Assembly: GCA_951406725.2 (NCBI GenBank)
Contig: OX597826.1
Location: 44,144,001-44,208,000 of the forward strand
Source of the DNA: Octopus vulgaris
Lineage: Eukaryota
Direction: 5' to 3'
DNA: 64,000 bases
Shown: positions 25,578 to 30,588 of the stretch, piece by piece
Layout: every line of letters begins with the position of its first letter
Numbering within the stretch: the first letter of the stretch is position 1
The notes under the pieces: generated by a model
Database searches by the model: none
What the model saw: the letters and a program-made list of their open reading frames with translations, nothing else
What the model was told of the DNA's origin: nothing
Translations under genes and position numbers: made by a program

Positions 25578-25580
<3 letters not shown>

Positions 25581-26830
25581 GGTCATCCCATAAATAATGC
25601 GGTGATTTTTATACGTCTTTTATTGGTCAAAATTACGATAAACAAAGTTCGTTTTCAATCTAAAATATACTCTCCTTCATTTTCTACAATACTCTTCCAT
25701 CTAACTGGTGGACTTGCAAGGCCCTCTTCCAAAATTCACTTGTCCGTGACGTAAAATACCCTTCCAGTACTGCTGTAACCTCGTCTACAAAATTCATATT
25801 TTCCCCTTCGAAATGATTTTGAAAACTGCGGAATAAGTGATAATCAGATGGAGCAATGTCCGGCCCATATGGTGAGTGGGGCATCGTTTCCCTTTCAAAC
25901 TGTTCCAGCCTTAAGAATGCAATCCTCGTTGTATATGGCCGAGCATTATCCTGATGGATGAAACCCTTTCGTCTTGAAACCAAAGGTGGTCATTATTTTC
26001 TTCTAACGCTGGCTTACGCTGCTCAGGCTGCTCGCAATAGATCTCCTTTATTATTTTTTGGTTTAGTTTTAAAAGTTCAAAGTGGACTAAACTTTTCATA
26101 TACCACCAAACAGATAACAACACCTTACGTGGGTGAAAACCTTTTTTGGCCTCGAGTGCCCGTGTTTCTCCTTTCCCTACCCAATGTCTTCGCACATTTG
26201 ACATTTTTATCGAGAACCCATTTCTCGTCACCAGTCACTGTCCAGTCTATAAAAAAAAGTTTCATTCGTGAGACGTGACTACAAAGAAGATGACATGTTC
26301 ACTCTCTGCGCGCGATTAAACTCGGAAAATTTGTGACGAACCCATTCACCCAATTTGCTGACTTTTCCGATGGTACGCAGGTGTCGATAAAAAGTTAAAT
26401 GACCAAATACAATCTTCTTTGCTAGTTCCTTAACAGTTACGATGAGGTTTTGTTCCACACGTTTTGCAGGACATCCTCGACGAGCTCTACAGACCTTCCA
26501 GAAAGAGGTTTGTCTTCTAGGTTGTAGTTTCCGGACCGCAATTTCTGGAAACACCGTTGACACCGGCTTACGCGTATTGTCCGATCCCCATATACAACGT
26601 TAATATTCCTCCCACTTTCCGTTGTGTTGTTGCCTGTATTGAACTAATAAAGTAAAATATGCTGAATATCATCTATTATAGCTTTGAAAAATTAACTGTT
26701 AATATCGAACTGCACTCTTCAAAATTTCAAAACTAAGAATAAGTACAAGATATAATTACTATCTGCTTTTATAGCAAGCTGATGGAGATTGTTTACCTCA
26801 TGCCCACCCCGACTTTTAGTTCATGCAGTT
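25578..26830 (-). mobile_element. mariner (DD34D) transposon, near full-length pseudogenised transposase
   Basis: WVRH (WVPH-like), TGDEKW, HQDNARP and YGPDIAPSDYHLF across frameshifted ORFs 26279-26563, 25911-26231 and 25684-25983. TIR-like end gtgggtcatcccataaataatgcgg lies next to (TA)n. Confidence 0.95.
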
Positions 26831-26860: not shown

Positions 26861-27019
26861 GGATCTAAACAGATTGATTCAAATTCGTTAGTACTCTTGG
26901 GTTTCAAGCGCGATGATAGTCGTCGAGTATTTCGAATTTCAAATTCGAAATGGCTGATGACTAGCATCACGCTTGAATCTCAAGAATACCAAAGAATTTG
27001 AATGAATCTATTTTGATCC
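26861..27019. repeat. ~80-bp-arm fold-back palindrome containing two decayed hammerhead copies
   Basis: Left ggatctaaacagatt...ttcgaattt pairs with right aaattcgaa...ttttgatcc; CTGATGA at 26954-26960. Confidence 0.85.
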
Positions 27020-27162
27020 ATACATGTAACTCTCAATAAACTGGTTGAGTATCCTTTCGTTTGTCCAGTCACTCGTGTATATATATATTCGGTGTGTGGT
27101 GAGGCAAATCGTTGCTAAACCCTTAATTACTTAGTATTACTTATATATATATATATATATAT

Positions 27163-27546
27163 AATTCCAAAATTAGAAATTCCATTTACCAATGTAAAAT
27201 TTCTTCCGGTACCGATGTCTTCTTCTACATTGGGGCAACTACTTCTAAATTAGCCCACAGGATCTCCAATCATTATTCAACTTTCCGAGATAAGAGAAAA
27301 CAACAAAGCACAGGACTAAGTAAATTAGTTTGGCGTCTTAAGGACAGCAATACAACTTTAAAACTGGAATGGTCCATATTGTCTGTATCCTTTCCGTTTG
27401 ATAATGGCAGAAAATTTTGTGGCGTCTGTAATTCCGAACTTTTCCATATATTGTTCGCCAAAGTCCCTTTAATAAATACAATGGTCGAGAAATCCTATAG
27501 GTGCATGTACTGGCAGAAACACACCTTTCACTCATATAAATGTTGA
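27163..27546 (+). pseudogene. GIY-YIG endonuclease C-terminal domain of a Penelope-like retroelement (5'-truncated, no start codon, otherwise open)
   Basis: Manual translation: NSKIRNSIYQCKISSGTDVFFYIGATTSKLAHRISNHYSTFRDKRKQQSTGLSKLVWRLKDSNTTLKLEWSILSVSFPFDNGRKFCGVCNSELFHILFAKVPLINTMVEKSYRCMYWQKHTFHSYKC*. It has IY..YIG, R..NH, LSK..W.LK, C..C..E and N motifs. Confidence 0.9.
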
Positions 27547-28077
27547 TTAATATAGATAACCTACTTGAATTTTAATAATATAGTCCCATTTATATATCAC
27601 CCCCATAGTCAATTTTTATACCCATAAATGACTACTACCCAAGGTATGTTTTACCTTTGTCTCTCTACCTCACCCTCCTCTCTCTCTGTCCCTCTCTCTA
27701 TCGTAAGCACAATCAAACACACAGACACAAACCTGTCACTTCACCACTGTCTGTTTTTGGCATCTATCCAACCACACACACATACACACACATAGACATG
27801 AATGCAGTTATATACATACACACACATAGGCACTCAATCACAAAAGAAAACAACAACAAATCACCATTCATATGACCTGCACCCTGTCACCTTCCTATTC
27901 TTAGACCTCTCTCCTCCAACCTTGTTTGAACCCTTGAACCTTCTAGAATCTTCTAAATTCAACCATTTTTGACGTCACTGCTTATAACGGAATATTTAAA
28001 AGAAACACTCATTATCGCTATGGGCTCCGTGTGGGCAGTCATCTAAAAGTTTTTGTTCATCATGATGCTAACATAAG

Positions 28078-28176
28078 TTCCTTGTTTTTCCTGATGAGAA
28101 AGCGGCATAATGCACCGCTTATTCCTTCGAAATTAGGAATATGCAGCCACTGAAACATATGTCGAGAATAAAGGAA
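28078..28176 (+). ncRNA. Type I hammerhead ribozyme motif (minimal stem III, degenerate stem II base)
   Basis: ttccttgtttttc-CTGATGA(28091)-...-t-GAAAC-atat-GTC(28163)-gagaataaaggaa. Confidence 0.7.
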
Positions 28177-28209
28177 TTTTGTTAATTCGTCGTTCAACTC
28201 CATTCTTTC

Positions 28210-28277
<68 letters not shown>

Positions 28278-28306
28278 GAGTGACTGTGTGTATGTGTGTA
28301 TGTGTG

Positions 28307-28382
<76 letters not shown>

Positions 28383-28429
28383 AATATATATGTAGAAGAA
28401 AACAAGTAATTGGAAGTTAATTGGTATTA

Positions 28430-28650
28430 TTCATTACGCATGTTTCATTTGCCGATAGGAATTACAAAATTGTACATGTTAGATAGTCATGTAAATATTT
28501 CCTATTAGAAATTCTTCAGACAGAGTAATTAAATAATACACACATTATAATATATAGAAACATTTACATGTGAATATTATTTACTTTGTTTGTGTGAAGA
28601 ATTTTTAGTAGGAAATTCCTCACATGTCTATCTAACATGTAACAATTTGT
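28430..28650 (-). ncRNA. Degenerate HHR (28430-28525) overlapping a fold-back (28464-28538 / 28574-28650)
   Basis: Minus strand: CTGAAGA-atttctaataggaa...ttcctatcggcaaat-GAAAC-atgc-GTA; stem I weak. Confidence 0.55.
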
Positions 28651-28830: not shown

Positions 28831-28834
<4 letters not shown>

Positions 28835-29175
28835 GGTAAAGACCCCCTTCGGTCATGAGTGACCATGGGTTTGCACCTAGAGGTTACCCTCTGAGGCACA
28901 AGTCTGGGCAAGGTTGTTTTTATGGAAGACCAGTAGTCGCCCATGCATACCGGCCTCCCCTCTCCACGCCACCAGTGTTATCCAAGGGAAAGACAAAGGT
29001 CGATACAGCTTGGCACCTGTGACGTCGCAACTCCTTTCTACAGCTGAGTGAACTGGAGCAACGTGAAATAAAGTGTCTTGCTCAAGAACACAGCACGCAG
29101 CCCAGTCCGGGATTCGAACTTACAACCTCACGATCGTAAGCTCGACGCTCTAACCACTGAGCCATGCGCCTTCAC
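28831..29175 (-). mobile_element. tRNA-derived SINE, family C (CORE-like ttgagcaagacac), full length, inserted in (TA)n
   Basis: Head gtgaaggcgcatggctcagtggttagagcg...gttcgaatccc; close match to 63590-63923. Confidence 0.92.
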
Positions 29176-29189
29176 TTATATATATATAT

Positions 29190-30588
29190 ATATAATATTA
29201 AATTAGAGATAAAACCACTATTAGGCAAATCAAAAATTATTTAAATAATTTAAACTTATAAATTTTATATATATATACAAATATATATATATATATATAT
29301 GTATGTATATTTTTATATTTATATATTAATTAATCAATTAATTTATATATTTATTATTATTATTATTATTATTTTTTTAAATATCAAAAGTATTAAAAGT
29401 TTAAGAAAAGATAAAGAGTAAAACACTACGATCGTTTCATAGCTGTACCAATTCGAATAACAATAATTTAAATTCAATTAATAATTCGATTTATGGTTAC
29501 AGTCAATATTCAGGTTAATTGAGGTATTTTAAAAATAATCAGAAATATTTAAACAATATTTTTAAGATATAAATAATATAATTTTACTTATAATTAACTC
29601 TATTATAAAACTAGAAACTTAAAACTTAACAATTATTATGTTAAATATTAATTTTAATTTATAAGGTAAGAAACCCACCAATAATCTAATATCAGCAATA
29701 GTCTATATCTAATTACACAAATATAAAAAAAATGACTATTATATATCAATGAAAATATATAAATGTATATACATATTATAATTAAGATCTAAAATAATCT
29801 CTATAAATAAATATATATGCACATATAATAAATACCTAATAAATTAATTTTTCATATTTAAAGATGAAATAGCTAATTTCAAAAATACAAACAAACAAAC
29901 TGAAACAAACTTTCGGAAATCTTATTTAAAATACTTATAGAAATAATCAATTCGTAGTTATATAGTATCGAATAAATACTATAAATACTATAAATATAAT
30001 TATCAATGGGAATAACTAGCGAATATCAATTTAAAAAGACAATAACTAAGTTATGCTATTAAGTTAGACATGGCCTGGACCAATCTTTAGTCGAAACATA
30101 TCTAAGTTTATCAAAGTTTATCTAATTTTAATTATAAGAAATTTAAAACTACAATTAATACTATTAATACATGTATATACAAAAGCCTAACTTTAGACAC
30201 CTCGTATACTTGCTATCAAACAACAAATCTATCGTTAAGTAATATCTTACGAATAAACTTAAATTTAATATCTAATAATATAGAAAATTACGATAATTAG
30301 ATCATTACATAAACAACGATATTTACATAAGGAAAATATTATTACAACGAAAGACTTATAAAATATTAAAATTTACAATTTAAAGACCTTAAATATAAAT
30401 AAATACTTATCTTAGCGAGGTTTTGTAATGAACTACAAAATGAATTACAAAACCTCGCTAAGATAAGTATTTATTTATATTTAAGGTCTTTAAATTGTAA
30501 ATTTTAATATTTTATAAGTCTTTGGTGTAATAATATTTTCCTTATGTAAATATCGTTGCTTATGTAATGATCTAATTATCGTAATTTT
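29190..30588 (-). mobile_element. Extremely AT-rich TA-adjacent element with decayed HHR (29421-29520) and terminal fold-back (30284-30429 / 30444-30588)
   Basis: Minus strand CTGAATA..gactgtaacca/tggtacagc..GAAAC-gatc-GTA; ~145-bp near-perfect inverted arms. Confidence 0.6.

Follow-up and report, generated by a model that had tools for sequence, protein, structure and literature searches.

Within the window, the whole stretch of 64,000 nucleotides from Octopus vulgaris contig OX597826.1 that was analysed, an open frame of 127 codons (27163-27543, stop codon 27544-27546) begins directly 3' of a (TA)10 tract and contains IY, YIG and CxxC motifs, as a preliminary description of this DNA had stated. 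Read from stop to stop the GIY-YIG frame comprises 139 codons, the first 12 of which extend into the TA tract. Two further features of that description were also recovered, a hammerhead core (CTGATGA, at 28091) situated 545 bases past the stop codon, where about 530 bp had been given, and a (TA)n tract that restarts at 28213 (Table 1). All 29 other fetched copies of the same family (family A) carry element sequence upstream at the point where the window copy meets (TA)10, and this tract is likely one half of the target microsatellite. As a locus the window copy is ordinary transposon debris.

Table 1. Features of the window copy, its flanks and the neighbouring insertion (window positions).
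Feature	Position	Strand	Basis
(TA)10 tract bordering the truncated 5' end	27142-27162	.	sequence
C-terminal GIY-YIG endonuclease part of the element ORF, severed from linker and RT	27163-27546	+	
3' UTR/pseudo-LTR with CT-rich and CA-rich stretches inside; short ('tail-less') 3' end	27547-28212	+	
Predicted type I hammerhead, stem II weakened in the window copy	28075-28180	+	conservation across families A, B and C
Parts of the predicted hammerhead: core CTGATGA; long stem II; GAAA	28091-28097; 28098-28151; 28152	+	
(TA)n-rich tract, 3' flank	28213-28391	.	
Separate neighbouring insertion: 3' UTR of Hydra-type family E, with fold-back end	29188-30588	-	

The identity of the peptide as a GIY-YIG endonuclease held despite a Pfam GIY-YIG score below the cut-off (E=0.0016, 19.1 bits against 22.6), since a profile made from 23 homologues matched the window frame with E=3.6e-24, the sole match below E 0.5 among the 1574 frames of the window. 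The residues Y9, Y22, G24, R33, H37, C86, C89, E92, N105 and C114 are retained in the window copy, while Tyr116 stands where the CxH motif has its histidine, giving CxY. Searches of PDB sequences with the peptide and with a 103-row profile gave no match. The predicted structure of the family endonuclease domain (mean pLDDT 82) resembles I-TevI (Z 9.2, rmsd 2.5, 90 residues aligned) and T4 EndoII (Z 8.8, rmsd 3.6, 110 residues aligned), and a Foldseek search with the same model returned nothing at E<=0.001, the top seven rows nonetheless all being GIY-YIG nucleases.

A search of the octopus genome with the window element revealed 1350 first-look candidates, a figure that is not a copy number, and all 40 matches that were scored are 94-100% identical, these being the best-scoring copies and not a random sample. 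In one alignment 27 of the 29 other fetched copies reach the same 3' point as the window copy, and the 5' ends of family A copies vary from 50 to more than 1500 bases upstream. The longer copies reveal what has been lost: one (L031) has an open frame of 833 codons in which an Asn-rich spacer separates the reverse transcriptase (RT) from the endonuclease, and another (L250) has about 879 codons from a Met with one stop, no fully open full-length ORF being found among the copies fetched. The best homologue has E=4.8e-103 (23 hits). Pfam found no RT family in the long frame, and the RT was identified by its motifs compared with Fig. S7 of Craig et al. 2021 (PMC8557442) and by its homologues. That the frame in the window could instead be a domesticated exon of a host endonuclease, as its openness and catalytic residues might suggest, is scarcely credible, as its sequence recurs in very many dispersed copies, the frame begins at a TA junction without a start codon, and a conserved His is changed. 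At one locus (L033) a family A insertion lies ~1.3 kb from an intronless frame of 335 codons (1718-2722 of that locus) which by eye resembles an aminergic G-protein-coupled receptor.

Family A copies have two types of 3' end, situated either at the end of the window copy or ~155 bases beyond. The ~155-base tail, which the window copy lacks, is the 5' UTR of a next unit and leads into the ATG in tandem copies. The tandem joint, with a unit of 3538 bases, was found in contigs of all four public runs examined, which carry three organism codes; parts of it are also covered by runs presumed to come from RNA, a coverage that is not indicative of expression. Inverted arms are frequent. Of 12 loci that carry several 3' ends, 11 combine a single tailed end with a single tail-less one. 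This layout matches the Penelope-like one in Fig. 2 of PMC8557442, and the features of endonuclease-bearing (EN+) Penelope-like elements that were found comprise a single ORF with RT and GIY-YIG, partial tandems with pseudo-LTRs, inverted 5'-truncated arms, a tail at one end and a putative hammerhead motif in the pseudo-LTR. The Penelope-like nature proposed earlier is thus supported by the longer copies with RT, the tandems, the inverted ends and the tail.

Among the Penelope-like clades Neptune, Poseidon, Nematis and Naiad had been proposed for comparison, a list that omits the one that fits by motifs, Hydra. According to Craig et al. 2021 (PMC8557442) Hydra elements have a C-terminal GIY-YIG without CCHH, the motifs RWK and DKT, a CxCX5C linker, CxxC and CxH, a hammerhead and insertion at (TA)n, and the supplement already lists a Hydra element from an octopus, Hydra-1_Obim of Octopus bimaculoides. 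Family A has a C-terminal GIY-YIG without CCHH, as well as DKT and the motif GLYRDD, which also agrees with the Hydra description, and in families A, B and C, the last two being related to A, CxxC and CxH are present around a conserved E and N. Neither an N-terminal endonuclease, as in Naiad and Chlamys, nor the endonuclease CCHH of Neptune, Nematis and Penelope-Poseidon was found in the family. The (TA)n insertion is present (121 of 125 3' ends, see below) and the CxCX5C linker is absent in A, B and C, so the group is classed as a Hydra-related variant and not as a member. Judged by these motifs the closest clade is Hydra and not Neptune, Poseidon, Nematis or Naiad, a placement that rests on the motifs in the supplement of PMC8557442 and on the homologues, the RT tree containing no named Hydra sequence. 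That tree (25 rows, midpoint root) holds homologues with the Hydra signature together with family D from the same genome, and contains no RT of family B, while P0022, P0023 and P0025 were left out. Families A and C group together (100/98), with family E as sister (98/97) followed by the homologue P0003. Another locus (L115, minus strand) bears a Penelope-type endonuclease of another sort, probably Neptune or Naiad, whose linker is CX4CxxC-like.

The absence of the linker cysteines was addressed by comparing linker regions. No CxC was found in 33 readings from families A, B and C, of which 26 have no Cys and seven have one (some loci were read twice), while the Cys motif is present in all 22 homologues that reach it, the 23rd ending short of it, and in all nine Hydra rows of Fig. 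S7 (PMC8557442), an alignment in the supplement that displays nine of 27 listed Hydra families. As the two neighbours of A+C in the RT tree, family E and P0003, both have linker cysteines, the loss in A-C is, on this comparison of sequences, likely derived. In its place the three families share a motif of 26 residues without Cys (core SEVNPNRLKF) upstream of GIY, preceded by an Asn-rich spacer of 121 (A), 138 (B) and 23 (C) residues. The motif is more conserved between families (59/78 identical) than the sequence elsewhere (209/357; p=0.005, with silent sites saturated), and the structure model is of low confidence over the first half of the motif (pLDDT ~50). Among 150 representative protein hits 56 have CxC, 20 have a partial set of cysteines, 49 are too short and 21 fall in none of these classes, and four show the new motif by pattern with ~2 more by eye. 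No description of a Hydra family lacking the linker was found in the literature searched, the scope of which excluded most subscription journals as well as Repbase and Dfam, and the first part of bioRxiv 10.64898/2026.07.22.740005 held nothing specific.

When tabulating the insertion flanks of homologous copies, as had been proposed, a 3' end was counted as TA-flanked if (TA)4 or more was present within 31 bases. This was the case for 55 of 58 ends in family A (including L014, a row labelled as tandem which is a TA end), 41 of 41 in family B (28 rows skipped as internal, and L120 left out as a duplicate of L119) and 25 of 26 in family C (nine rows that continue into the tail dropped as internal), together 121/125 against a window background of 8.7%. 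At the 5' junctions of family A nine are TA, three are other sequence, 11 are joined to another element piece and seven lie beyond the locus, so that TA is found at nine of the 12 that are not joined to other pieces. No TA is present at the tandem junctions, so the tract does not derive from the element's own template. Contigs of four DNA runs showed no joint of an empty site, but they break at TA repeats, and this absence therefore carries no weight.

Two other repeats served as controls. One is a young LINE (L179-L208; 4168 candidates, 99% identical, with (GAT)n tails), which from its peptide we take to be of RTE type, with TA at 17 of 31 3' ends, second matches in two loci being included. 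The other is a SINE-like repeat of 345 bases at 28832-29178 (4489 candidates, 97-99% identical), the label resting on size and layout only, with TA at 24 of 40 junctions. Both values are far above background, and together with the preference for AT-rich DNA of Penelope/Poseidon enzymes, which have no linker finger (PMC11167929), they favour the explanation that the TA association reflects the genome and not the enzyme, TA tracts being general landing or survival sites for retroelements or expanding after insertion. The frequency of 121/125 exceeds both that of RTE (p=1.6e-8) and that of SINE (p=2.3e-8), with the reservation that ends in the same locus are not independent, and an explanation by the genome as a whole is therefore considered rather unlikely. 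The controls also limit what a TA boundary can tell. The earlier suggestion that the TA-bounded segments are Penelope-like extends to 29188-30588, likewise a Hydra-type 3' end, and fails for the SINE-like repeat, which is equally TA-bounded; TA boundaries alone do not mark a Penelope-like element, as RTE and SINE also adjoin TA.

In PMC8557442 the preference of Hydra, Neptune and Naiad for (TA)n is tied to the Cys linker, as a proposal. Families A-C retain the TA bias although they have lost the linker cysteines, and the aiming therefore likely lies elsewhere than in the linker finger; the linker Cys motif is likely not what directs A-C to (TA)n. The endonuclease itself may prefer TA, and the aiming would likely come from the GIY-YIG core with the C-terminal CxxC/CxH, from the Cys-free motif directly preceding it or from TA tracts being readily accessible. 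Targeting without the linker is less surprising as Chlamys elements target repeats without this finger (PMC8557442). Another explanation would be that A-C depend for their movement on a Hydra protein with the linker, supplied in trans by family D or E, and in that case the loss would be uninformative about aiming. Family D, with a CxC linker like that of Hydra-1_Obim, and family E, whose only copy read (L249) has three cysteines in its linker, do share the genome with A-C, and E is young (97-99% identical). Against this, the endonucleases of A, B and C are under purifying selection (pN 0.20-0.30 versus pS 0.73-1.0) with catalytic residues kept, and D seems to be older and less numerous (69 candidates, most of them 76-88% identical), making movement in trans improbable. 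Returning to aiming by the proteins of A-C themselves, we tentatively propose, as an idea with the odds against it, that this Hydra-type lineage swapped the linker zinc finger for the Cys-free 26-residue motif, which would do the same job in elements that are still strictly TA-targeted. If so, a zinc finger would be unneeded for microsatellite targeting by Penelope-like elements, and the finger-bearing sister families would be controls within the genome. Three successful families without the linker beside two that bear it, in one genome, make the idea of targeting by the linker directly testable; the lineage is of interest to specialists and bears on what aims Penelope-like enzymes.

The putative hammerhead was examined in all three families. 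Its predicted stem III consists of two pairs with a palindromic loop, and cleavage is predicted after C28163. Rfam gave no hammerhead at the gathering or E-value threshold, the miRNA matches being TA/CA repeats, and the bare hammerhead pattern occurs nine times in the window with 3.0 expected, so the motif alone is weak evidence. Across 15 sequences selected from A, B and C there is no variation in CTGA-GA, GAAAC or the G of the GUH site, apart from a core deletion in one sequence, and 90.1% of 345 cells in the alignment are paired as compared with 34-45% in slid controls. Five of the 23 pairs are altered on both sides, a count reached in 80 of 500 shuffles that ignore kinship. The conservation in three families thus supports the assignment as a candidate hammerhead. 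The first GAAA (28129) was considered as closing element and rejected in favour of the second (28152), the fold of 28060-28160 built on the first one having a z of -1.3. The window copy holds 20 of the 23 pairs, and the pairing probability of stem II is 0.00 compared with 0.99 in two other copies (L003 and L020). Three more hammerhead-like cores, likewise with a palindromic loop on stem III, are located at 28519 (minus strand, inside a fold-back segment at 28467-28648), 35373 (plus) and 39791 (minus).

The preliminary description took the open frame as a sign of recent activity. The frame is open in 21 of the 30 top copies as well, and openness is consequently weak evidence. The window copy differs from the family majority at only 8 of 378 bases (~2%, with a mean of 2.7% over 27 in-register copies), which would agree with recent movement. 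For changes private to a copy the ratio is 0.60 (76 non-silent, 32 silent; transitions not corrected for), which is near neutral, and variants shared within family A have been under selection (dN/dS ~0.27). In addition the window copy has no RT and no start codon, the CxH motif is altered and stem II is weakened, and the top matches of the RTE (99%) and the SINE-like repeat (97-99%) are closer than those of family A. Recent activity of this copy is for these reasons very improbable, and the suggestion was not upheld. In PMC13282606 a recently active copy is within 2% and has at least 90% of full length, and the window copy lies outside both limits; on the octopus scale used there, where 0.09 corresponds to 25 million years, family A would roughly be some 6-7 million years old.

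Taken together, 27163-28212 is very probably a 5'-truncated, Hydra-related Penelope-like copy without the linker Cys motif. It is no longer active and likely entered an existing (TA)n through target-primed reverse transcription. Anatomy, ends, flanks and selection were observed here, and the course of insertion may be pictured from what is known of Penelope (PMC11167929). A tandem transcript would be translated, the protein would nick AT-rich DNA and the RNA would be copied from one of two internal start points. For the window copy, copying may have started at the short end and aborted after 1.05 kb.

Other repeats surround the element. A decayed Tc1/mariner is located at 25578-26760 on the minus strand, right after a TA tract (Pfam Transposase_1, E=3.7e-14; HTH_48, E=5.6e-9), and just upstream of the element an imperfect inverted repeat of 159 bases (26861-27019, 80%) contains the word CTGATGA. 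In the neighbouring family E insertion the hammerhead core, which starts at 29513, is mutated. Family E has 918 candidates and a very long AT-rich UTR, and its long copy (L249) is sister to the group without linker.

Compared with known systems, the element is most like Hydra (PMC8557442), with which it shares a single ORF with RT followed by GIY-YIG, DKT, the lack of CCHH, CxxC/CxH, a putative type I hammerhead and (TA)n. It differs in that Hydra has the CxCX5C linker where A-C have the conserved Cys-free motif and the Asn-rich spacer, and in the N-terminal RWK, which is RWL in A and C, a position where the third residue varies in two homologues too. The family A unit of 3538 bases (~3.5 kb) is also larger than is usual in the clade (<3 kb; complete listed families 2.1-2.7 kb). 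Family A is not Hydra-1_Obim, which by eye is resembled by family D; over 150 residues of the RT, D and A are 38% identical. Penelope/Poseidon elements, with PAc of Anolis (Frangieh et al. 2024, PMC11167929), are similar in having no linker finger, a preference for AT-rich targets, pseudo-LTR tandems, the tail signature and a hammerhead near the ORF start, but they have CCHH in the endonuclease and DKG, whereas family A has the Hydra-type C-terminal CxxC/CxH. Neptune, Nematis and Naiad (PMC8557442) are alike in combining GIY-YIG and RT, with a microsatellite bias in Neptune and Naiad, but have CCHH and a CX2-5CxxC finger, both missing in family A; in Naiad, furthermore, the endonuclease is N-terminal and a canonical hammerhead is missing, neither of which holds for family A. 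The minimal hammerheads in pseudo-LTRs of Penelope-like elements (Cervera and De la Pena 2014, PMC4209133) resemble the predicted one in their type I fold, short stem III and mostly palindromic loop, a form associated there with dimer-dependent cutting, while the predicted hammerhead of families A-C has a far longer, bulged stem II of ~54 nt.
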